DNA of 18,186 nucleotides from positions 1-18,186 of the forward strand of contig DYFC01000066.1 in the NCBI GenBank assembly GCA_020725385.1, written 5' to 3'. The stretch comes from Nitrospira japonica (GTDB lineage Bacteria > Nitrospirota > Thermodesulfovibrionia > Thermodesulfovibrionales > SM23-35). The notes beneath the pieces are model-generated. The model made no database searches, was not told the DNA's origin, and saw nothing but the letters and a program-made list of their open reading frames with translations. A program made the position numbers and the translations under genes. Below, piece by piece: positions 6,485 through 18,100 of this stretch (positions are counted from its first letter, which is position 1; each line of letters opens with the position of its first letter).

Positions 6485-7537
6485 ATGAAAAAAAGAAAAA
6501 AAACTATAACAATTAATGTTGGCAGAGTAAGAATTGGAGGGAATAATCCGATAGCTGTTCAATCCATGACAAAGACAGATACTGCTGATGTTGAATCAAC
6601 TGTAAAACAAATACATTCTCTTGAAAAAACTGGATGTGAAATTATCAGAGTTGCAGTGCCTGACATGGCTGCTGCAAAATCTTTGGGAAGGATAAAGAAG
6701 GGCATAAATATTCCATTAATTGCAGACATTCATTTTGACTGGAGACTTGCTCTTGAGGCTGTTAAACAGGGAGTTGATGGTCTTAGAATAAATCCTGGAA
6801 ACATTGGTGCGCAATGGAAGATAAAAGAAGTAGTAAATGCTGCAAAGGAAAGAGAGCTTCCAATTCGCATCGGAGTGAATGCAGGATCCCTTGAAAAAGA
6901 TATTTTGAAGAAATATAAACATCCTGTGCCTGAAGCTCTTGTTGAAAGCGCAGGCAGAAACATAGATATACTTGAAAATATGGGTTTCAATTCTATTAAA
7001 GTATCTTTAAAAGCATCTGATGTTCTAACAACAATTGATGCATATAGATTGTTCTCAAAAAAATACAGGTATCCTTTGCATATAGGAATATCAGAGGCAG
7101 GACCGCCTTCGCAGGGAATAATTAAAAGCTCTGTGGGACTTGGTATTTTGCTCAATGAAGGTATTGGTGATACCATAAGGGTTTCTTTGACTTCAGAACC
7201 AGAGGAGGAAGTCAGGGTAGCTTATGCAATACTTGGCTCATTGAAATTAAGACAGCGCGGAATAAATATAATCTCCTGCCCAACATGTGGAAGAACAAAA
7301 ATAGATCTTAAAAAGCTCGTTCATAAAGTTGAACAGCATGTAAAAAACATAAATAAACCTATTACACTTGCGGTAATGGGATGTGTTGTAAATGGTCCTG
7401 GAGAAGCAAAAGAAGCGGATTTCGGTATAGCCGGTGGAAAAGGCAGAGGCATTCTTTTCAGGAAAGGTGAAATAATTAAAAGCGTAAAAGAAGAAGAACT
7501 GCTTGATTGTCTTATTGAAGAATTACAGAAATATTAG
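6485..7537 (+). CDS. ispG: (E)-4-hydroxy-3-methylbut-2-enyl-diphosphate synthase
   Basis: IAVQSMT, IADIHFD, RINPGNI, IRIGVNAGSL, GIGDTIRVSL, and the Fe-S ligands in CPTCGR and MGCVVNGPGEA. Confidence 0.98.
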   Translation: MKKRKKTITINVGRVRIGGNNPIAVQSMTKTDTADVESTVKQIHSLEKTGCEIIRVAVPDMAAAKSLGRIKKGINIPLIADIHFDWRLALEAVKQGVDGLRINPGNIGAQWKIKEVVNAAKERELPIRIGVNAGSLEKDILKKYKHPVPEALVESAGRNIDILENMGFNSIKVSLKASDVLTTIDAYRLFSKKYRYPLHIGISEAGPPSQGIIKSSVGLGILLNEGIGDTIRVSLTSEPEEEVRVAYAILGSLKLRQRGINIISCPTCGRTKIDLKKLVHKVEQHVKNINKPITLAVMGCVVNGPGEAKEADFGIAGGKGRGILFRKGEIIKSVKEEELLDCLIEELQKY

Positions 7538-9840
7538 TCTTCAAATTTTTCAAGTTCTTTTAGAAAAGCATCATTACACATTAAATCAAGAACAACCTTA
7601 GATACACTCTTTATTACATCCGGTAAAAGATCTCCTTTTTCTATCTTTGCAAGATCATTATAAATAACAAGCGAATTTAAAAATATTGCTGACTGCCATG
7701 ATTTTTTAACAAATTCCTGTCTTTTCTTTGTCAGATGCTGCCTGTTTAAGAATTCATGAAAAATATCAGCATCCATATTGATAAATATATCAACACCTTT
7801 ACTGTCACCACTCGGGACAACTTTTGCGATATCTTCACCACACCATGAGGAACCATCATCTTTTTTGATTTCGGTCCATGTTCTGCAACCCTCTTTTTTT
7901 TCTTTATAAACAAGAACTGGCTGGGGAAGCTGGTAATTTTTTATCTTTGCTAAAGAAGGCAATGAAGGAAGGTTAATTTTACTTTCCAAATCTTTTGGCT
8001 CAATATATTTAATCTTAAACTCAACAACCAGAGGTTCAAAGTTGTGTCTTGTAAGCATAGCAATAACATCCTTAATATCGCCAACCTTTGCTTTTTTAGA
8101 AGGAAAAAGTTTTGCAGTTATTTTACCATTCCATATATGATAGGATTTCATAATATCCGGATATATAATAAATGAGCCTTTTTCAATTTCCCTGCTGAAA
8201 TAATCATTCGGAGCATCTGTCTCAAATGTAATTCTTGCATATGAATTTATAGCAATCTGTTTGATTTGATGTCCCCTAATTTTTAAATAAGTTGGCATCC
8301 ATTTTCCTGTATATTCCCTACTGACTAGATCCCCTATGTCTGATTCATCCTTTATATTTCCACCGTGTCCGAGATAACCGAGTATAGAGCGATTCTTTTT
8401 AATTAACTTTGAAAGAATTCCTTCTAAGAACCTTGTATCTTCAGGATTCCTGGATATTTGCTCTTCTCTTCTTTTCTTATTAAGCTGTCTCAAGCCTTCA
8501 TGTCTGCCTAATTCTTCTGCGAGTATGGCTTCGATTTCTTTTGATACTTCATTTTCACGCATTCTGTCTCTTGATGGCATAAAAGTTTTTTCTCTTATAT
8601 TAGTCTCAACATCCGTGCAATCAATATGCACCAAAAGAGAATCTGCAAGATAATGAAGATTTGCCTTTGTCTTTAAAAACGACCTGCCTATAGTTGCATG
8701 TGTCTGACCATTAATTGTAAAGAAAATAGCATCATTAGTTGTGGAGAATTCTTCTTTACCGGTGTCCTCTTTAAAAACAGAGACTTCAATAGTTCTTTTA
8801 CCGAATTTGCCTAATTCAGCTATTATAGGGATTATAACCGGACATTTTTCTTCAAGATTATCCTTATCATCTTTTAAAATTCGCACCCTGTTGCCCATAA
8901 GGATATTTGGATTAGGTTTGTCCTTTGTTATTTTAATTTTTCTTGTTTCATATAATAACAACGGCAGTGCTGGTGAATGTAAAACTCTATTTAAAGCTTT
9001 CCAGAGGTTTGATGTAATAGCAGATGGTTCGGGAAGGTAATAATTGTAAAGCTTGATATATGTACCTGAATTCAAAAACTCATTTTCAGGCAGTATTCCA
9101 AGAGGCTCTCCATGAAAAGACAATATCTCTCCATTTTCATCAACAAAATACTCATACCATGAATTTTTATATTCAGACGTTGTTGCAATATGCAATCTAA
9201 CAAGTGTAAAACCCCATTTATCAGGCTGGCCTCTATTCAATAATCCAGGTGTCTTTCTCGAAAGAATCAACTGGTAATTATATTCTCCACAATTAGGCAA
9301 TACACCGCTACCACCCATATTATATTTCCCCTGAACAAATGGTATCCTGTTTTTATTTCCTCTATGGAGTGATAGAAAAGTGCTCTCGAAATCAACAGGA
9401 TGCTGGCCTTCACCTGTATCGGCAATAATAATATTTGGTCTTTTTTTATCTCCTTCGGCAATAACCATTATATTTTTTGCTATATTTCTTCTTTCTTTTT
9501 CAGGAATTTCAGAAGGATCACCATTTTTTATCCCAAAAAATATCTCAACAGCTTCCTTCATTGTCTTTGGAGCGTTTTTAGATTCAGGGTCAAGATTTCT
9601 TAATTTACATTCTTTTAAAAGAAGTGCATCTATAGAATTGATAGGCTTTTCAGCTAAGGCAGCGATAGAATTTTTTGCCTGGTTGTTTATTGTATTAAAA
9701 TTGCCTTCATAACCGCCATAAGGTCTCCAGCTTGATAAATCTACAAGGAATGGCTCGGAGTCAATAATATCTTTTACTTCATATTCTGACTTTGCAGATA
9801 TTAATTTAAATAAAAGCTCTTTTGAATATTCTTCGTTCAT
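7534..9840 (-). CDS. Large protein with N-terminal GHKL (HATPase_c / MORC / TopoVIB-like) ATPase domain; function unknown
   Basis: 768-aa ORF; Bergerat-fold motifs in order: N-box LAEKPINSIDA, G1 IADTGEGQ, G2 QGKYNMGGSG, later SGTYIKL; downstream FMPSRDRMR resembles the S5-like transducer region. C-terminal half not recognised. Confidence 0.8.
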   Translation of the reverse strand: MNEEYSKELLFKLISAKSEYEVKDIIDSEPFLVDLSSWRPYGGYEGNFNTINNQAKNSIAALAEKPINSIDALLLKECKLRNLDPESKNAPKTMKEAVEIFFGIKNGDPSEIPEKERRNIAKNIMVIAEGDKKRPNIIIADTGEGQHPVDFESTFLSLHRGNKNRIPFVQGKYNMGGSGVLPNCGEYNYQLILSRKTPGLLNRGQPDKWGFTLVRLHIATTSEYKNSWYEYFVDENGEILSFHGEPLGILPENEFLNSGTYIKLYNYYLPEPSAITSNLWKALNRVLHSPALPLLLYETRKIKITKDKPNPNILMGNRVRILKDDKDNLEEKCPVIIPIIAELGKFGKRTIEVSVFKEDTGKEEFSTTNDAIFFTINGQTHATIGRSFLKTKANLHYLADSLLVHIDCTDVETNIREKTFMPSRDRMRENEVSKEIEAILAEELGRHEGLRQLNKKRREEQISRNPEDTRFLEGILSKLIKKNRSILGYLGHGGNIKDESDIGDLVSREYTGKWMPTYLKIRGHQIKQIAINSYARITFETDAPNDYFSREIEKGSFIIYPDIMKSYHIWNGKITAKLFPSKKAKVGDIKDVIAMLTRHNFEPLVVEFKIKYIEPKDLESKINLPSLPSLAKIKNYQLPQPVLVYKEKKEGCRTWTEIKKDDGSSWCGEDIAKVVPSGDSKGVDIFINMDADIFHEFLNRQHLTKKRQEFVKKSWQSAIFLNSLVIYNDLAKIEKGDLLPDVIKSVSKVVLDLMCNDAFLKELEKFED

Positions 9841-10045: not shown

Positions 10046-13000
10046 ATGATTTATATGCCAAATGTAAACATTCCAAATCCATCAAACAAGAAAATACTTT
10101 CTATCGTGGTTCAGGGACGTAACGACAATTACATGGGAAATTTTATATGGAGACTTTCCACAAATATAAATAAGCAGTCAAAAAATATTTTTGCTCTTGG
10201 TTATGAAAATCAAGCTGAAATTATATTGGTCGATTGGGGAAGTGAAATTTCCCTTAAGGATGTATTAATACTCAATAATGAAGCAAAGTCTCTTCTAAGG
10301 ATAATAGAAGTTCCACCATGGATAGCAAACAAATACAATCTTGACTCGCCCTATTCCTGTGTTCATGCTATTAACACAGGAATAAGAAGAGCTCATGGAG
10401 AATATGTCCTTTTCTGCGATGGAGACACATATGTTCCTCTTAATTCAATGGAAAAGATTTTCAACATGTTAAACGACGGGAATTTGAACGGAATTCCTAT
10501 TAATAAACTGCTCCTTCTTGCCTCGCGTTACCATATACCTAAATCTTTTCAAGAGACAATGCCCGAACTTGAAGATATAGACAATTATATTGAGAAAAAT
10601 CTAATTACCCTTTCCCACGATAAAATTAATATTGATAATTTTATGGGCACTGCCACGGCTTATTTAATGTCAAGGGATTTATGGTTTGAATCCAGGGGGT
10701 TTGATGAAAAGCTTATTTACTGGGGATGGTTTGATATAGATCTTTTCTGCCGCATAATTACAAAGTATCCTGTCTTTGATTTTGAAGATTTTGGAATGCT
10801 TTTTTTTCATCTTGAACATTACACCGATTCGAAGAATCGTTCTCTTGAAAAAGAAAACCCGAGAAAACCAAATCCAATGATTTATCCTTCGGGATTCACA
10901 AATAACATGGAAAACTGGGGTTTATCATCCGAAAAGCTGTTGGAAACATTTTTATTTCCCATTATCTTTATACATAAAGGCGATAGCGATTATCTCACAT
11001 ATACCCTCAGGTGTGCCAAGTTGTTCAATCCACATTCAGAAATTATCTTGCTCGGCGATGAGGCAAACGAACATTTCAAATCTCATGGCATAAAACACTA
11101 TTATTATTCTGAATATGAAGGAGAAGAGTCCCGTCTGTTTGATTCAATATTTAAATATATTGCAGGTACAGACCACCCCGGGAAACCATGGTGGGTACAC
11201 TTTGTTTTCAAAAGATGGTTTCATGTCTATTTTTTCATTAAAAAACATAATATTTCCAGATTCTGGATTTTTGATTCCGACACCTTAATTCTTTCAGACT
11301 TAAGTAAACAGGCAATAAAGTTCATTGATTTCGATTGCACCGAACAGTGCAATGGTTCATGCATGAATGGTTTAATAGGAAATTCAGGTATAGTTAAAGG
11401 TTATATTGATACAATCAACAAGTTATTTCAGGATGAAGAATTTCTCTTAAAACAACAAAAAGAATTCGAGACAAAAAAAACATATGCTTTTACAGAGATG
11501 AGGGCATACGTTTTTTTTAGAAATAATTCGGGTATCAAAACGATTCGCCTAAATTCAATAATTGATGGTGAAACTTTCGATGACTGTATCTGCCAGCAGC
11601 ATGATATGGAGATGGAAGGAGGAGTTAAAAAACTTTATTTTAAAAATAACAGCGTTTATCTTAAACATATTCCTGATCAAAAATTAATCAAAGCTAATAG
11701 CCTTAATATGAGCTGGGTGCCTGTTTCATTTATAAAACAAGTTTATGATATTGTAAGCGAGAAAAAACCCTTATCCTCACAACAGTCTTCAAAAAATGAA
11801 TTTTCCAGAAAAGATAGTGATTTGCCGGTACATTTTTTCACGATCGTACTTAACGGAGAACCCTTCATCAGGTATCATATTGAAGCATTCAAACAATTAC
11901 CATTCAAATGGCACTGGCATATTATTGAAGGCGTCGCGGACTTAAAACATGATACAGCATGGAGTCTGAAATATGGAGCAAGAATCACCGATGAGATACA
12001 TGATAAAGGCTTAAGCAATGACGGCACAACCGGCTATATAGACCAGATAAAAAAGCAATTTCCCGAAAACGTCTCTGTTTACCGTAAACCGGAAGGTATA
12101 TTCTGGGATGGCAAGATCGAAATGGTCAATGCCCCGCTTTCTAACATTAACGAAGAGTGTCTTCTCTGGCAGGTGGATGCTGACGAATTATGGACCGTAG
12201 AGCAGATATGCAAAACCCGTTCTCTTTTTATTGAAAATCCGGATAAGACCGCTGCTTACTATTACTGCCATTATTTTGTCGGCGAAAAACTTATTATTTC
12301 AACACGTAATACATATGGTAATCATACTGATTATGAATGGTTGAGAACATGGCGTTATATTCCCGGTGATCGCTGGATGGCACATGAACCTCCAAAACTT
12401 TTTAGAAAAACCGGGAACGAACAATGGATTGATATAGCTTCAATTAATATCTTCAGACACAATGAAACAGAAGAACACGGGCTCATTTTTCAGCATTATT
12501 CTTATGCAATAGAAGAACAATTATTTTTCAAGGAAAGATATTTCGGTTATTCTGGAGCAGTAAATAAATGGAAACTGCTCCAGAGACAGACTCACTTCCC
12601 TGTACTTTTAAGACATTTTTTCAACTGGGTTGAAGACAACGCGCTCGTTGATACAGTTGAAGCTTTAAATATAAAACCACTTGCATGGAAAGAAGTTGAA
12701 GGACAATGGCATTTCAGACATCATGAACTGCCTGAGGAACAAAAATCTTATGCCAGCACAAAGCAGCAAGCACACAAAACAGAAAAGAAACAAATTAAAG
12801 CCGGGAAAAATATCTTATGGATTCGCACAGATGCAATAGGCGATGCTATCCTATCAGCTTCAATGCTTCCTTATATCAGGGTGAAATATCCCGAAGCAAA
12901 TATAAATGTTGTTTGCCAGAAGCATATTGCAGAAATTTATGAACCATCTCCTTTTATTGATAGAATTATAGTTTTTGATGAAAAGCTTCTCTTTGATGAT

Positions 13001-16000
13001 AAAAATTATTTAAAAGCTATACTTAAAGAAATTCAGGACGTAAATGCCGATATTGCTTTTAATCCGGTTTATTCTCCAAAACCTGTTACAGACATTCTTA
13101 CTATCGGAAGTGTTGCAAAAGAAAAAATAGGACTTGAGGGTGATCTATCGAATATTCCTGCTGATTTTAGAGAAAACAGCAAAAAACACTATACTAAACT
13201 TATAAAAAGCGAAGGCATATTCAAGGCCGAAATTGAAAGACACCGGGATTTTCTCAAAGGTCTTGATATTAATCCATTGGAACTAAAACCCGTTATATGG
13301 CTAACAGAAGAAGACGAAGAATATGCCGATAATTTTTTTAGAATTCGTAACATTGTTCCTGAGAATACAATTATTCTTGCCAGTTGCGCTCAGTTTATTA
13401 TCAAATATTATCAACATTATGGAATAGCACTTTCTAAGATATGCAAGGAAAATGATTTTACCGTAGTTGCAGTTGGAGCAGATCATGAAAAAGAGAGGAA
13501 TCAATTCAATCTGAACATGATCGGTTCCAGCACGATAAATCTATGCGGTCAGACAACAATCCGCCAGACCGCTGCTTTAGTTAAGAGAAGCCGTCTTGTT
13601 GTTAGTGCTGACTCAGCAGTTGGTCATATTGCCTGTGCTGTTGGAACACCTAATGTAATCATTATTGGAGGCGGACAATTCGGGAGATTTTTCCCTTACT
13701 CACCTTTAACTGCTGTTGTCTGTCACCCTATGCAGTGCTATCAGTGTAACTGGGCTTGTAAATTTCCGAGACCTTATTGCATTCAAAATATTTCTTCTAT
13801 AAGTTTATCCGAAGCTATCAGGGAAACATTGAATGGAATTCCGGATAGACCAAGAATATTTTTTGAAACAGATGCTATAAAAGACAAAATTCAGGGTCAG
13901 GATTACTGGAAATGGTTCGGGGAGTATATTAAATTTACGCCTTCAGATTTGATACCTATTGAAAAAAGTCCTGAGTCAGATAAAAAATCGCCCCCTAATC
14001 TTGAAAAAACAGGAAGAATAACCTTTTCAAAACTTGATGAAAATGCAATCATTGGTGGAGGATTCATCGCCACAACATTCAAGGCAGGTTTGTGCAACAG
14101 AATATTAGAATGGACAATTCTCAGAGAAATTAGCGAAAAATACGGGATGACAATTCTCGTTGACTGGGAAGAGGTAAAAGACGGCTCGATAATATTACCT
14201 TCAACACAATATTTTGATCTTTCAACTGCGTCCTCTGAAATTGCCGGAACATTTATACCTTTAAGAACCGACCTTCCCGATATAAACTCACTTGATGATC
14301 TAAAAATCGAGAAAAATAAAAATTATATTCTAATATGCGAATGGAATTACAAACGTAGTCTTACAGATGAGAAAAAACGAATTCAGGAAATCCAGATTGG
14401 CAAAAGATATTCTGACAGGATTAATGATTTTCTTAAAGAATATGAAAAAAATGTTATTGTCGGCCTTCATGTACGAAGAGGTGATTATATTCCTACAGAG
14501 AAATTTCTACTGTCAGATAAAAAATTTTATCGGATACCGGATGAGTGGTATCTCAATATCGCAAAACAGATTTTGAATGAAATACCCGGTGCAAAATTTT
14601 TTCTTGCAACAGATGCCACCGAAGAAGAGAAAAAAATATTTAGAGAAAATCTACCTGTAATATCTATATCAGCCGGCAAAGAAACACCCCGTCTTGATAT
14701 ACTTGAACTTTTTACCCTTTCGAGCCTTCCAGCAATTATATGTTCTGTCTCGACTTTCAGTATATTTGCAAGAGATTACGGTAGGGAAAAGGTTTCTGTA
14801 TGGCCTAAAGAACCGTATCAGGATATTAGAGATGAGATCGAAATGATAAAAAGAACATCTTCAACCTTTTCTTTAAAAATCAGCCCATCAGCAGCATTAC
14901 CAAGAATTTCTGTGGTTACACCTTCATTCAATCAGGGCCAATATATTGAAAAGACAATTCTTAGCGTACTCGAGCAGGGTTATCCTGACTTCGAGCACAT
15001 AGTAATTGATGGTGGCTCTACAGACAATACACCGGACATTCTAAAAAAATATCCGCACTTAAAATGGATATCCGAAAAAGATGAAGGTCAGGCTGATGCT
15101 TTAAATAAAGGATTCAGGATGGCCAGCGGAGACATTATTGCATGGATTAATTCAGATGACTGGTACGAGCCTGAAGCTTTTAATACAGTTGCCATGTGGT
15201 TCAAAGAAAATCCGGATAAGAATATTGTTATGGGTGATTGTAATCTGATTGACAGAAACGGGACAGTATTTTACGTAGCAGAAAACTATGAACGTGGCTT
15301 CGAAGAGATAAGCCGCTTCTGGATAACAGGCTCTATTCCAACACAACCTGCAATTTTCTTCAGGAAGAGTCTGCTCGATGAATTTGGCTATCTTGATAAA
15401 TCTCTTCATTATGCTATGGACTATGACCTCTGGATAAGATTTGCAGGTAAGAACCGTTTTTATCACATTAAAAAAATTGTTGCCAACTATCTTTTCCATG
15501 AAGGTTCGAAGGGTGGTATCCATCAGGATTGGGACAAGTTTATCCCTGATTGCAAGAAGGTATTCAAAAAACACGTTCTTTCCAGAAGACCTCCTGAAGT
15601 TTCTGTTGTAATTGCCTGTTATAATCAGGCTGTTTTTTTACCGGAAGCTGTCAGGAGTGTTACAGAGCAGGTATTTCAGGATTTTGAAATAATCATTGTC
15701 AACGATGGAAGCACGGATAATACAGAACAGGTTGCTGAAATGCTCGTTCAAAAATATCCTGACAATATTATAAAAATAATAAATCAAAAAAATATGGGTG
15801 TTTCTGCAGCAAGAAATGCTGGAATTAAAGCTTCAAGTGGAAAATATATTCTTCCTCTGGATGCCGATGACATGCTTCATCCTGATATGCTTTTACGGAC
15901 AACAGGACTTTTGGATACATACCCGGAAGTAGGGATAGCATATACCGATGTTCAAAAATTCGGGAAATTAGAAGAATACTGGCAGTCATGGGATTGGGAT

Positions 16001-17644
16001 TTAAACAGGCTTTGCTTTCAGAATATACTGCCTTATTGTTCGCTTTACCGGAGAGAAGTATGGGATACCGCCGGTGGATACAAAGAAAGAATTATTTTTG
16101 GATATGAAGACTGGGATTTCTGGATAAGTTGCGCTGAAAAAGGTATAACAGGCAAACGCATTCCTGAAAATCTATTAATATATCGTACGAAAGAAACAAG
16201 CCGGGACACAGAAGCAATTAAAAGCCATGAAAAATTGTTTGCCCATATTGTTTTAAACCATCCTTCATTGTATAAATCCGATACAATTGCATGGGCAAAA
16301 AGTGTTGTAGGAACTTTAGAAAATTCAGACGTAGTAAAAGATGATAAGGTTGCTTCAATTTCCACTAAGGGATTCTTTAAACCAATGAATATTCTTCTTT
16401 GTGTTCATAGTTTTCCAACACAGAGAATGGCGGGCACAGAGCTCTATGTCTATCATTTAGCAAAGGAATTAATGAATAAAGGACATAATATCAAGGTGCT
16501 TTATCCTGTATATGATAATAATTCGGATTACATTGATATAAAAGAAGATAGTTTCGAAAATATCACGCTTGCGCAGATGCATTTGAGACCCCCTTCCAAT
16601 ATAATCGAGCATTTCAAAAATGAACAGGCAGCGAATGTTTTTAATAATTATATATCCTTGAATCCACCCGATATAGTTCACTTTCATCATTTCATGGGAA
16701 TTTCTGCTTCTCCGCTTAAAGCATGTCACGAACAAAATATCCCTTCAGTTGTAACTTTGCATGATGAATGGATTTTGTGCGAACAGCTTCATTACCTTCT
16801 GCCAGATGGCACCTTCTGTAGCGGTCCGGAAACAATTCAGAAATGCGTTGAATGCTTCATTATACGTCATCCAGAGATTCAACTAACCAATATAAAAGAA
16901 AATATATACGAGGCTTTTGTTCTAAGACGCCGGTTTTTTATCGAGGCTCTTAAGTGGATAACTACTTTAATTGTCCCTTCTTTATTTTTGAAAAACGAGT
17001 TAACAAAACATAAATTTATACATCCTAATATATTACATGTACCTCTTGGACTTCATACTTTTACTTCTGTCCCGTATAAGATGTCGCCTGATACCACAAG
17101 ATTGACATATCTCGGAAATATAAATTTTACCAAGGGATTCGACGTTCTGATCAAAGCATTTAATCTAATTAATATAAACAGAGCGGAACTGAATGTTTAT
17201 GGAAAAGTGCAGGATGAAGTATTCTTCCATCAGGTAATGTCCCTTAACATGAAACCTTATCAGGTTAAGATTCATGGACAATATAATCCGTCCGAATTGC
17301 CCAAAATCTTATCAAAAACAGATTTAGCTGTTATACCTTCACGCTCGGAAAACTACCCCTTTGTTGTTAGAGAATGTCTTCATGCCAGTGTTCCTGTTAT
17401 TGCTTCAAATGTCGGCGGCATACCCGAAATTATAAAGAATGCTGAAAATGGACTATTGTTTGAGTCAGGAAATTTTCAGGATCTTGCATCCAAATTAATG
17501 CTTTTGATTATGAATCCGAAAATGTTGTTGAATTTCAGAAAAAACATTAAACCTGTAAAAAGCATCGAAGAAGATGCTTCTGAATTGGAGAACATATATA
17601 AAGAAATTCTTGAGAATAAAAAATTAATACTCAGGAAAAAATAA
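10046..17644 (+). CDS. Giant multi-module glycosyltransferase (about 8 modules: three divergent GT-A-like, GT9-like, GT11-like, two GT2, GT4)
   Basis: 2532-aa uninterrupted ORF. Motifs: FCDGD and RGFDEKLIYWGWFDIDL; FDSDTLI; VDADELW; ILWIRTDAIGD and DSAVGHIACAVGTP; GLCNRI, HVRRGDY and STFS; ISVVTPSFNQ, DGGSTD and NSDD; VSVVIACYNQ, NDGSTD and LDADD; MNILLCVHSFP, GTELYV and ENYPFVVRE. Start could alternatively be ATG 10055. Confidence 0.92.
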   Translation: MIYMPNVNIPNPSNKKILSIVVQGRNDNYMGNFIWRLSTNINKQSKNIFALGYENQAEIILVDWGSEISLKDVLILNNEAKSLLRIIEVPPWIANKYNLDSPYSCVHAINTGIRRAHGEYVLFCDGDTYVPLNSMEKIFNMLNDGNLNGIPINKLLLLASRYHIPKSFQETMPELEDIDNYIEKNLITLSHDKINIDNFMGTATAYLMSRDLWFESRGFDEKLIYWGWFDIDLFCRIITKYPVFDFEDFGMLFFHLEHYTDSKNRSLEKENPRKPNPMIYPSGFTNNMENWGLSSEKLLETFLFPIIFIHKGDSDYLTYTLRCAKLFNPHSEIILLGDEANEHFKSHGIKHYYYSEYEGEESRLFDSIFKYIAGTDHPGKPWWVHFVFKRWFHVYFFIKKHNISRFWIFDSDTLILSDLSKQAIKFIDFDCTEQCNGSCMNGLIGNSGIVKGYIDTINKLFQDEEFLLKQQKEFETKKTYAFTEMRAYVFFRNNSGIKTIRLNSIIDGETFDDCICQQHDMEMEGGVKKLYFKNNSVYLKHIPDQKLIKANSLNMSWVPVSFIKQVYDIVSEKKPLSSQQSSKNEFSRKDSDLPVHFFTIVLNGEPFIRYHIEAFKQLPFKWHWHIIEGVADLKHDTAWSLKYGARITDEIHDKGLSNDGTTGYIDQIKKQFPENVSVYRKPEGIFWDGKIEMVNAPLSNINEECLLWQVDADELWTVEQICKTRSLFIENPDKTAAYYYCHYFVGEKLIISTRNTYGNHTDYEWLRTWRYIPGDRWMAHEPPKLFRKTGNEQWIDIASINIFRHNETEEHGLIFQHYSYAIEEQLFFKERYFGYSGAVNKWKLLQRQTHFPVLLRHFFNWVEDNALVDTVEALNIKPLAWKEVEGQWHFRHHELPEEQKSYASTKQQAHKTEKKQIKAGKNILWIRTDAIGDAILSASMLPYIRVKYPEANINVVCQKHIAEIYEPSPFIDRIIVFDEKLLFDDKNYLKAILKEIQDVNADIAFNPVYSPKPVTDILTIGSVAKEKIGLEGDLSNIPADFRENSKKHYTKLIKSEGIFKAEIERHRDFLKGLDINPLELKPVIWLTEEDEEYADNFFRIRNIVPENTIILASCAQFIIKYYQHYGIALSKICKENDFTVVAVGADHEKERNQFNLNMIGSSTINLCGQTTIRQTAALVKRSRLVVSADSAVGHIACAVGTPNVIIIGGGQFGRFFPYSPLTAVVCHPMQCYQCNWACKFPRPYCIQNISSISLSEAIRETLNGIPDRPRIFFETDAIKDKIQGQDYWKWFGEYIKFTPSDLIPIEKSPESDKKSPPNLEKTGRITFSKLDENAIIGGGFIATTFKAGLCNRILEWTILREISEKYGMTILVDWEEVKDGSIILPSTQYFDLSTASSEIAGTFIPLRTDLPDINSLDDLKIEKNKNYILICEWNYKRSLTDEKKRIQEIQIGKRYSDRINDFLKEYEKNVIVGLHVRRGDYIPTEKFLLSDKKFYRIPDEWYLNIAKQILNEIPGAKFFLATDATEEEKKIFRENLPVISISAGKETPRLDILELFTLSSLPAIICSVSTFSIFARDYGREKVSVWPKEPYQDIRDEIEMIKRTSSTFSLKISPSAALPRISVVTPSFNQGQYIEKTILSVLEQGYPDFEHIVIDGGSTDNTPDILKKYPHLKWISEKDEGQADALNKGFRMASGDIIAWINSDDWYEPEAFNTVAMWFKENPDKNIVMGDCNLIDRNGTVFYVAENYERGFEEISRFWITGSIPTQPAIFFRKSLLDEFGYLDKSLHYAMDYDLWIRFAGKNRFYHIKKIVANYLFHEGSKGGIHQDWDKFIPDCKKVFKKHVLSRRPPEVSVVIACYNQAVFLPEAVRSVTEQVFQDFEIIIVNDGSTDNTEQVAEMLVQKYPDNIIKIINQKNMGVSAARNAGIKASSGKYILPLDADDMLHPDMLLRTTGLLDTYPEVGIAYTDVQKFGKLEEYWQSWDWDLNRLCFQNILPYCSLYRREVWDTAGGYKERIIFGYEDWDFWISCAEKGITGKRIPENLLIYRTKETSRDTEAIKSHEKLFAHIVLNHPSLYKSDTIAWAKSVVGTLENSDVVKDDKVASISTKGFFKPMNILLCVHSFPTQRMAGTELYVYHLAKELMNKGHNIKVLYPVYDNNSDYIDIKEDSFENITLAQMHLRPPSNIIEHFKNEQAANVFNNYISLNPPDIVHFHHFMGISASPLKACHEQNIPSVVTLHDEWILCEQLHYLLPDGTFCSGPETIQKCVECFIIRHPEIQLTNIKENIYEAFVLRRRFFIEALKWITTLIVPSLFLKNELTKHKFIHPNILHVPLGLHTFTSVPYKMSPDTTRLTYLGNINFTKGFDVLIKAFNLININRAELNVYGKVQDEVFFHQVMSLNMKPYQVKIHGQYNPSELPKILSKTDLAVIPSRSENYPFVVRECLHASVPVIASNVGGIPEIIKNAENGLLFESGNFQDLASKLMLLIMNPKMLLNFRKNIKPVKSIEEDASELENIYKEILENKKLILRKK

Positions 17645-17666
17645 GAAATGGCTCCCGGGGAGGGAC

Positions 17667-17684
17667 TCCCGACATCCGTCGGGA
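17667..17684. repeat. 18-nt REP-like palindrome B
   Basis: TCCCGAC-ATCC-GTCGGGA, perfect 7-bp stem with 4-nt loop. Confidence 0.9.
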
Positions 17685-17692
17685 CAGGGTGG

Positions 17693-17976
17693 TTAATCCC
17701 GAACGCCTTCGGGACTCTGCCGACTGAGCAGGTAATCGATATATGCTCTGCTTTTCTTACCCTTAATCTCTTTCTCCCGTTTCATCGCTGCCGAACGGGT
17801 CTCATATTCCTCTGTGTACACGCATCTCCACGGTCCTTTTTTGCTTTTTGTGTGTTTTGACCCATGATATTTGGAATCGTTATGTTGATAGATTCGACGT
17901 GCAAGATTATCCGTATGACCAACATAGTACTCAGAGGTTGATTCACTTTGTAGTATATATATATAAAGTATGACAT
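17693..17976 (-). pseudogene. Small GIY-YIG nuclease (YhbQ/UPF0213/Slx1-like), frameshifted in a (TA)6 tract
   Basis: Manual translation with one TA unit removed from 17954-17965 gives 93 aa: MSYFIYILQSESTSEYYVGHTDNLARRIYQHNDSKYHGSKHTKSKKGPWRCVYTEEYETRSAAMKREKEIKGKKSRAYIDYLLSRQSPEGVRD. It has YIL/YVG strands, RR..QHN, GPW and AMKREKEIK (catalytic Arg and Glu). Confidence 0.92.
17697..17714. repeat. 18-nt REP-like palindrome A
   Basis: TCCCGAA-CGCC-TTCGGGA, perfect 7-bp stem with 4-nt loop. Confidence 0.9.
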
Positions 17977-17984
17977 GGATAATT

Positions 17985-18060
17985 TGGCTCCCGGGGAGGG
18001 ACTCGAACCCCCGACAGGGTGGTTAACAGCCACCTGCTCTGCCGACTGAGCTACCCGGGA
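17985..18060 (-). tRNA. tRNA-Asn (GTT)
   Basis: 76 nt TCCCGGGTAGCTCAGTCGGCAGAGCAGGTGGCTGTTAACCACCCTGTCGGGGGTTCGAGTCCCTCCCCGGGAGCCA; full cloverleaf, GTT anticodon, GGTTCGA T-loop, G73 discriminator, encoded CCA. Confidence 0.98.
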
Positions 18061-18070
18061 ACAGATTATT

Positions 18071-18100
18071 TTTATAACAAAATATTTCTACTTTTGTCAA
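18071..18100 (-). promoter_or_regulatory. Putative sigma70 promoter of tRNA-Asn
   Basis: Minus strand TTGACA (18100-18095), 18-nt spacer ending in TGT (extended -10), TATAAA (18076-18071), 10 nt upstream of the tRNA. Confidence 0.7.

Follow-up and report, generated by a model that had tools for sequence, protein, structure and literature searches.

What is a small nuclease gene doing between a bacterial transfer RNA (tRNA) gene and a second, incomplete copy of the same tRNA? The question arises near one end of an 18,186-nucleotide (nt) stretch of DNA from Nitrospira japonica (GenBank assembly GCA_020725385.1, contig DYFC01000066.1), hereafter the window, which is one whole contig. Read along the minus strand, it presents a tRNA-Asn(GTT) gene, 8 nt of spacer, a 93-codon GIY-YIG gene and then a copy of tRNA nt 10-76. 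The answer favoured here, with a probability of about 0.6, is that gene and copy belong to a selfish cassette nested at tRNA genes, whose spread and amplification proceed by recombination that uses the tRNA-derived arms, with the cassette's own nuclease as the probable trigger. The initial annotation of this DNA had already proposed a minimal selfish element at tRNA genes, and the recurrence of the arrangement, its tandem arrays and the existence of empty sites, all described below, support that proposal.

The tRNA-Asn gene (17985..18060, minus strand, as are all features of the locus) is intact, with its CCA end encoded, and was detected both by ARAGORN and by Rfam (RF00005, 64.7 bits); it is the sole tRNA-Asn gene among the 37 tRNAs found in the 2.46-Mb genome (G000). 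The 8-nt spacer (17977..17984) leads from the CCA end to the ATG of the GIY-YIG gene (17693..17976, with the ATG at 17976 and the TAA at 17695-17693), which specifies the catalytic domain only of a putative nuclease of the SLX1/UPF0213 branch and is frameshifted in the window. The pseudo-tRNA-Asn that follows (17649..17729) is made of tRNA nt 10-24, hairpin 1, nt 35-48, hairpin 2 and nt 57-76, as delimited by blastn. Hairpin 1, TCCCGAA-GGCG-TTCGGGA (17697..17714), stands in place of tRNA nt 25-34, and hairpin 2, T-CCCGAC-GGAT-GTCGGG-A (17667..17684), in place of nt 49-56; both are perfect. A blastn comparison of the region with the whole genome (2.46 Mb, 71 contigs) returned exactly three collinear blocks identical to the tRNA, of 15 nt (17729-17715), 14 nt (17696-17683) and 20 nt (17668-17649), and no further copy of these blocks elsewhere in the genome. 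The order of the parts, the complete identity of the three blocks and the two palindromic replacements had all been described in the initial annotation, and ARAGORN, Rfam, Pfam, the reading frame, the start of the homologues, blastn and the sequence itself bear them out.

The pseudo-copy is not recognised as a tRNA: ARAGORN calls one tRNA only, Rfam gives no tRNA match to it even at E <= 10, and at the same threshold no known RNA family was found for the pseudo-copy or its hairpins. It is also part of the coding sequence, since the final 11 codons and the stop codon of the GIY-YIG open reading frame (ORF) fall within it; hairpin 1 codes for the ...SPEGVRD tail of the protein, and the stop codon TAA is U36-A37-A38 of the former anticodon loop. 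Traced back from the TAA at 17695-17693, the frame stays open as far as 17965, and the ATG at 17976 lies +2 out of frame at a TA dinucleotide run that sequence and frame comparison show to have a 2-nt excess (17954..17966). Because homologues start with M-x-Y-F-V-Y-I-L-Q-S, removal of one TA restores the 93-codon gene. Among contigs of independent sequencing runs (those best matching the window DNA may include the sample from which the window was assembled), X1, at a depth of 41.6, covers 17400-18014, that is the flank, the pseudo-copy, the gene and 30 nt of the tRNA, and X8 covers 17693-18014; both have 2 nt fewer at 17954 and an intact ORF, and X2 and X4 (depth 3.8-4.6) have the frameshifted form, as in the window. 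The frameshift is thus a polymorphism or a low-coverage error, and the duplication is real, because contigs of independent runs bridge flank, pseudo-copy, gene and tRNA.

The same arrangement recurs far beyond this genome. Protein matches were obtained in 31 of 41 related genomes, and the 8 best among them are 67-78% identical over the full length, including the ...SRQSPEGVRD tail, each following a tRNA-Asn gene. Twenty of these loci were fetched and 16 hold a tRNA, namely Asn in 13, Ala in 2, and Asp plus Val in 1. Another 80 loci, from at least 12 phyla, came from a profile scan in which each GTDB species was represented by a single genome, and a tRNA lies within 300 nt in 70 of these 100 genome loci, as it does in 59 of 80 loci from a metagenome scan, in the latter case always on the strand of the ORF. 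When the genome and metagenome scans are combined into 178 distinct loci, a same-strand tRNA within 300 nt is present in 126, upstream of the ORF in 116 and downstream in 10; chance would give about 1.4%, as estimated from 37 tRNAs in 2.46 Mb, and in many of the loci without a nearby tRNA the ORF is at most 350 nt from a contig end. About 17 isotypes are represented, among them Asn, Ala, Val, Asp, Ile, Met, Pro, Cys, Phe, Leu, Gly, Gln, Ser, Arg, Tyr and Lys.

Beyond the ORF, a partial copy of the same tRNA, defined as at least 20 nt of its collinear exact blocks, is found in 87 of 108 evaluable loci with an upstream tRNA, against 1 of 100 control windows, and in 67 of the 87 the copy reaches the last base of the tRNA. 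Where the layout is mirrored, with the tRNA downstream, a 5' partial copy precedes the ORF in 7 of 10 loci. In loci that allow the comparison, the tRNA's native 3' flank comes after the pseudo-copy. For the type seen in the window, more than 20 relatives share the 71-nt pseudo-copy, and 24 distinct homologous sequences of this length can be aligned. The cassette can therefore be described by three parts: a GIY-YIG gene of about 80-95 codons, on the strand of the intact tRNA and in most cases directly downstream; a partial copy of this tRNA beyond the ORF, usually extending to its last base; and a hairpin, TCCCG...CGGGA (TCCG... in one protein clade), which replaces one or two arms of the copy. 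The initial annotation had expected homologues beside tRNAs with degenerate, palindrome-bearing copies of the same tRNA, and had named a fixed, vertically inherited context without such enrichment as the outcome that would speak against it; the 126 of 178 and 87 of 108 loci correspond to the former, and neither the adverse outcome nor the assembly artefact that it had also named was borne out.

How the gene joins the tRNA differs among lineages. In Desulfobulbia and Chitinophagaceae loci (L229-L233, L238 and L223) the ATG directly follows the T-run of the tRNA's own terminator, and this terminator is duplicated after the pseudo-copy; the Thermodesulfovibrionales loci have no terminator between tRNA and ORF.

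As to the third part, the arm-replacing segment is nearly always a hairpin with the base TCCCG...CGGGA, across isotypes and phyla, and the anticodon arm is the one most often replaced. The core hairpin is present in 133 of 178 loci, and perfect core hairpins number 256 in 104.8 kb beside the ORFs versus 32 in 388 kb further away, a 30-fold enrichment. In the 24 distinct window-type pseudo-copies 99.1% of the cells pair. Hairpin 2 has changes on both sides, i.e., compensatory changes, in 4 of its 7 pairs, with 98.2% of cells paired and a covariation score of 0.19 versus 0.062 in shuffled alignments (0 of 500 as high); the stem of hairpin 1 is invariant in these copies, and paired variant stems occur elsewhere in the order. 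The position of the hairpin is not fixed, being on the 5' side of the anticodon arm in the window, on its 3' side in L028 and L031, and in the T arm in others. Its class tracks the protein clade, with the TCCG type in 19 of 26 hairpins of clade 1 and the NCCCG type in 94 of 109 hairpins of clade 2. The conserved base suggests a recognition site for a protein, most likely the nuclease.

Two other origins or roles for the hairpin were considered and rejected. It does not derive from the local acceptor stem (TCCCG/CGGGA), as hosts with a TCCTGGG acceptor still have TCCCG hairpins, and it is not in general a stabiliser of mRNA 3' ends, as the mirror layout places it upstream of the ORF.

The genome of the window also has, away from tRNAs, a second GIY-YIG subfamily with about 35% identity, at C27:21788-22030(-), at C29:108896-109081(+), where it is truncated, and at C65:3488-3681(-), where it is broken. 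These copies are preceded upstream by GTCATTCCCGC...GCGGGAATCCAG, and those on C27 and C65, together with L020 of a relative, also have GGATTCCTGCTTTCGCAGGAATGAC downstream. The hairpins around this subfamily form inverted repeats with a TCCCG...CGGGA-type core like that of the tRNA cassettes.

Presence and absence of the cassette at one conserved site provide the evidence for gain and loss. G005, of the same genus as the window, has an identical tRNA-Asn with its promoter and neither ORF nor pseudo-copy, so that the empty-site relative anticipated by the initial annotation does exist; the tRNA-Asn sites of G021 and G025 are empty as well. In G013 (L104, contig C11) the tRNA-Asn is followed by a decayed GIY-YIG remnant in which N- and C-terminal codons are left and the middle is deleted, with no pseudo-copy after it. 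A pattern search for the window-type signature alone found the pseudo-copy in 15 of the order's 151 genomes, spread over 13 of 79 genera, and a reversed-pattern control gave 0. From 26 of 31 genomes related to the Desulfobulbia hosts, 27 tRNA-Asn loci were obtained, of which 3 carry the ORF; in a fourth, L240, an apparent ORF start lies at the end of the locus. Empty and occupied sites in this group share the tRNA core and a similar terminator, and the acceptor-stem bases vary.

The relationships of the proteins also speak for mobility. Two GIY-YIG lineages that are about 45% identical sit at the same tRNA-Asn locus in opposite layouts, and clades associated with tRNA-Asn span Nitrospirota, Desulfobulbia, Myxococcota, Planctomycetota and Verrucomicrobiota. 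On a 93-row protein tree the tRNA label requires 32 changes versus 51.7 when shuffled (0 of 200 as low), the tree being a quick one of 93 columns that leaves 43 of 90 branches unresolved and in which labels are shared by related rows. Left out of the tree were L011, L012 and L018 (truncated), L019 and L020 (distant), and L022 and L023, duplicates of L002 and L004.

Amplification is seen in tandem arrays. Pseudo-copy units are repeated in L002, L003, L030 and L031, some of them with their own promoter, and a Chitinophagaceae genome, G043, has 25 matches with arrays of a 338-388 nt period, close to the roughly 336-bp unit for which the initial annotation had foreseen tandem arrays. In G043 a tRNA-Val gene is followed by 6 units of 341 nt that differ from each other at 0-7 positions; other arrays comprise 3 units at tRNA-Lys, 5 at tRNA-Asp and 3 at tRNA-Leu, and a mirror array ends in tRNA-Met. 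Each unit of the Val array contains the terminator of the tRNA, the ORF, a D-arm-like stretch, the hairpin and tRNA nt 44-76, which is the product expected of unequal exchange between tRNA and pseudo-copy. Three predicted proteins of 166-214 amino acids (aa), P0022, P0023 and P0028, have two GIY-YIG stretches each, probably because the gene call ran on across two neighbouring array units.

The protein itself has a single recognisable domain. Pfam PF01541 matches residues 1-73 with 68.6 bits against a cut-off of 22.6 (E 6e-19), and apart from GIY-YIG only the related T5orf172 reaches significance in Pfam, Elongin_A (E 0.12) being below the cut-off. In an alignment of 16 sequences Y3, Y14, G16, R24, H28 and N29 do not vary, and conservation of E64 is at least 90%; the conserved Tyr...Tyr-x-Gly, Arg, His/Asn and Glu are presumably the GIY-YIG active-site residues. 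A profile search of PDB sequences retrieved the UPF0213 proteins BH0048 (1zg2, 7.3e-11) and EF2693, 1ywl at 4.2e-9, and SLX1 at 6e-6 to 5e-4, and no I-TevI or UvrC chain at E <= 1. The AlphaFold2 (AF2) model, with a predicted local distance difference test (pLDDT) score of 78.7, has the GIY-YIG fold of a three-stranded sheet plus helices and a disordered tail (residues 84-90); the top Foldseek rows are 1zg2, Slx1 of Slx1-Slx4, the I-TevI catalytic domain and the UvrC N-terminal domain, all with E > 0.001. By sequence comparison the protein sits in the SLX1/UPF0213 branch, closer to it than to the I-TevI, UvrC or Penelope branches, and profile and fold matches thus replace the homing-endonuclease and Penelope-like affiliations named in the initial annotation. 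The model points to a catalytic-domain-only nuclease of 90-95 aa, consisting of the core and a disordered tail.

The intron-endonuclease model TIGR01453 scores 17.1 bits, below its cut-off of 56.05, and PHROGs gave 0 families at E <= 0.01. The family is large: 13,011 cluster representatives match at E <= 1e-3, of which 1,599 remain at E <= 1e-10. A scan of 2.9 million viral contigs yielded 2 weak loci. In the closest pairs the ratio of nonsynonymous to synonymous substitution rates (dN/dS) is 0.06-0.18, with usable dS in 38 of 171 pairs and inflated ratios for the L121 row, which is misaligned by an indel; the protein is under purifying selection.

These observations can be assembled into the following scheme for a selfish cassette. 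The ORF would be expressed with the tRNA transcription unit or by read-through from it. A promoter-like TTGACA-18 nt-TATAAA (18071..18100, minus strand), read from the sequence by eye, lies 5' of the tRNA-Asn gene, the same motif precedes tRNA-Asn in relatives, and it is the probable source of transcription for tRNA and cassette. A scan for consensus promoters and terminators listed neither a tRNA promoter nor a terminator 3' of the pseudo-copy, and it misses this motif because it demands a T at position 6 of the second hexamer. The nuclease would then nick or break the DNA in or beside the tRNA gene or the hairpin, and the break would be repaired by homologous recombination, with the intact tRNA and the pseudo-copy serving as arms. 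In register with an empty allele, repair would copy the cassette in, in a homing-like manner; out of register between sister chromosomes, it would add units made of the 3' part of the tRNA, the ORF and the hairpin, and so give rise to arrays. The hairpin may keep the pseudo-copy from serving as a tRNA or as a target, and, as it splits the homology of the pseudo-copy into blocks of at most 20 nt, it would make loss of the ORF by deletion slower. The activity and target of the nuclease, its own part in insertion or amplification and the role of the hairpin are what we infer.

Several points weigh against this scheme. Each of its mechanistic steps, i.e., activity, cleavage site and transfer, is inferred. 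The protein lacks a DNA-binding domain and hence a source of target specificity, and the intact tRNA remains beside the nuclease gene, which, if the tRNA is the target, requires that self-cleavage be tolerated or prevented. Purifying selection and persistence at the same locus in several genera fit a host-beneficial gene equally well. The genome of the window holds a single cassette unit, whose ORF is frameshifted in the window; the shared tRNA core of empty and occupied sites gives no sign that the tRNA is co-converted with the cassette; and, given 2 viral-contig loci and the null result with PHROGs, no vector is evident. [quoted passage not shown]

The closest precedent for the selfish cassette comes from phages. 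In the accessible portions of the reports, SegB is a free-standing GIY-YIG homing endonuclease of T-even phages whose gene lies among or beside tRNA genes (PMC2330249; PMC13096335); its homologues are enriched near phage tRNAs of many isotypes, and it drives a recombination-dependent tandem amplification of a tRNA plus segB unit that exploits microhomology shared by the tRNA's 5' end and segB's 3' end (PMC13096335). As far as these sources go, SegB resembles the cassette in being encoded by a GIY-YIG gene near tRNAs with the presence/absence behaviour typical of selfish genes, and it serves as a tested precedent for the break, for repair through arms, and for the copying and unit-addition steps beside tRNA genes. 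It differs in its phage host, the cassette being found on bacterial chromosomes with 2 loci in viral contigs, and in its protein, which for the cassette is a 90-aa catalytic domain of the SLX1/UPF0213 branch without a DNA-binding domain. Furthermore, the partial tRNA copy with arm-replacing hairpins belongs to the cassette and is not reported for SegB in the portions of the sources at hand.

With homing endonuclease genes in general the cassette shares presence/absence polymorphism at a conserved site, as illustrated by occupied, empty and decayed tRNA-Asn loci. I-TevI and the Seg proteins owe their long-site specificity to a separate DNA-binding domain, which the cassette protein does not have. 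The best matches in sequence and fold, UPF0213 (BH0048, EF2693) and SLX1, share its minimal GIY-YIG core. The substrates of SLX1 are branched and stem-loop DNA, in keeping with a hairpin or a cloverleaf as the DNA that is cut; SLX1 differs in having a RING domain and a partner, SLX4, and the UPF0213 proteins are without known function. The 2006 survey, in its available part, does not mention linkage to tRNA genes, pseudo-tRNAs or hairpins for UPF0213/SLX1 proteins (PMC1564403).

Among the alternatives, the one that survives best, unlikely as we hold it to be, assigns the leading role to the hairpin. In a manner similar to REP/RAYT or IS200/IS605, the nuclease would recognise TCCCG...CGGGA in single-stranded DNA, and host replication and repair would help to move or copy hairpin and ORF arm for arm into tRNA stem-loops, recombination between arms being secondary. 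Both of those systems pair a small enzyme gene with a short, conserved hairpin in which paired changes preserve the stem, and the cassette hairpin behaves alike, with a conserved base and an inner stem and loop that vary by paired changes. The different sites of the hairpin within the tRNA copies of related cassettes, the match between hairpin class and protein clade, the same-core inverted hairpins on both sides of the non-tRNA GIY-YIG subfamily, and the structure-selective SLX1 nucleases as nearest solved relatives all count in its favour. However, the REP/RAYT and IS200/IS605 enzymes are HUH/Y1 transposases and the cassette enzyme is a GIY-YIG hydrolase; GIY-YIG enzymes hydrolyse DNA, and strand transfer by them is not known to us. 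Nor are the hairpins dispersed like REP sequences, being confined to cassettes with a tRNA gene copy as target: a genome scan for perfect hairpins starting with TCCCG or TTCCG (stem of at least 7) gave 7 hits over 2.46 Mb, the cassette accounting for 2, and missed the shorter-stemmed hairpins beside the second subfamily. In addition, the co-variation of hairpin and protein may reflect linkage only, and the array units are exactly as unequal homologous exchange predicts. The likeness to the RAYT-REP partnership drawn in the initial annotation stands in one respect, namely that the nuclease gene is accompanied by a conserved TCCCG...CGGGA hairpin.

Less probable again is a system that acts at the RNA level and is useful or addictive to the host. 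Here the protein would act on the tRNA or pre-tRNA, in quality control or as a toxin, the transcribed pseudo-tRNA or hairpin would be a regulator, a decoy or an antitoxin, and linkage to tRNAs would reflect function and co-expression. This would suit an ORF that directly follows the tRNA on the same strand, the purifying selection on the protein, and the tandem pseudo-copy units that precede the ORF in L031 and others, which recall RNA-repeat antitoxins. We know of no RNase activity of GIY-YIG domains. Moreover, patchy distribution (15 of 151 genomes), empty sites, decayed copies and arrays of whole ORFs are typical of selfish DNA, a terminator parts tRNA from ORF in some lineages, and the hairpin does not keep to one position in the mRNA, since it precedes the ORF in one layout and follows it in the other. 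Fusions of Slx1-like domains to TrmH-like and COG4123 methyltransferase domains, in the part of the survey available, count for the RNA-level role (PMC1564403).

The layout also recalls the attL/attR boundaries of integrase-driven islands and prophages, with an intact tRNA on one side, a displaced partial copy on the other and the native 3' flank after that copy, and the 3' parts of tRNA genes are well-known att sites (Williams 2002, cited by PMC9897764 in its accessible part). The closest relative of the window cassette (L111:380-700, 87% identity) is preceded by tRNA-Asn nt 28-76 only, a fragment that follows the end of an integrase-like gene; a classical integrase island has therefore apparently used the same tRNA-Asn as its attachment site. 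This fragment just upstream of a cassette favours the view of the duplication as a leftover att site of a lost island, with the GIY-YIG gene as surviving cargo, a view that we nevertheless consider very improbable. As the initial annotation had noted, the window lacks an integrase: no integrase/transposase, tyrosine or serine recombinase was found among its 8 real-looking ORFs. The insert is about 340 nt with the ORF alone, recurring in 126 loci and in arrays; its repeat of up to 67 nt is interrupted by conserved arm-replacing hairpins, which integrase sites lack; and tandem arrays and a mirror-image layout set it further apart from integrase islands. Finally, an assembly or sequencing artefact, a chimeric tRNA repeat, would suit a short contig of a metagenome-assembled genome with a repeat at its end, and is scarcely credible given independent contigs that bridge flank, pseudo-copy, gene and tRNA and more than 20 relatives with the same 71-nt pseudo-copy.

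Taken by analogy, the selfish cassette appears to combine a free-standing homing-endonuclease gene with SegB-like segmental amplification, the look of attL/attR boundaries and an enzyme-hairpin pair like that of REP/RAYT. It is placed outside the Seg/I-TevI, RAYT and integrase families because the defining features of these that were tested are absent from it.

The gene content of the rest of the window is unremarkable. An ORF of 2532 aa (10046-17644, plus strand) joins glycosyltransferase domains of families 2, 9, 4 and 1 and converges on the cassette from the opposite strand, its stop lying 4 nt from the end of the pseudo-tRNA; an ORF of 768 aa (7534-9840, minus strand) has no Pfam family at E <= 1e-5. 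Other genes are those for a rhomboid protein, a response regulator, GroEL, an AAA ATPase, YceG and GcpE. The final 81 nt of the contig (18106-18186) are the end of a multi-copy repeat that holds two copies of a unit of about 35 nt, is found at the ends of at least 15 other contigs of the genome and has very high depth in four runs; it is probably the end of an insertion sequence, about 45 nt upstream of the tRNA-Asn promoter.

Full-text literature searches, with supplements and subscription-only papers outside their reach, returned no description of GIY-YIG genes that nest at tRNA genes of bacteria and are accompanied by pseudo-tRNA hairpins. A bolder possibility, which can be advanced only tentatively, is that a structure-selective nuclease and a DNA hairpin of its own constitute a two-part mobile system, a hairpin-guided, tRNA-targeting class found in at least 12 bacterial phyla and mechanistically distinct from homing endonucleases, integrases and REP/RAYT, that would write its hairpin into tRNA-gene copies arm for arm and amplify beside them. 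Were this true, the hairpin-flanked GIY-YIG subfamily away from tRNAs would be a free-living cousin, and the large, function-less UPF0213 family would gain a biological role.

If the reading as a selfish cassette is right, the unit of about 340 bp with one 90-aa enzyme would be among the smallest autonomous selfish DNA units known from bacteria. It would extend the link between SegB and tRNAs from phages to bacterial chromosomes, and would explain in a general, hitherto overlooked way why fragments of tRNA genes, tandem repeats and breaks in assemblies arise near tRNA genes in many phyla. Annotation would be affected too, because the pseudo-copies and the read-through tails (...SPEGVRD, ...RASR, ...GC) stem from tRNA sequence. 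The compact pair of nuclease and hairpin would offer a specificity that is directly testable, and a part of the UPF0213/SLX1-like family would be given a role.

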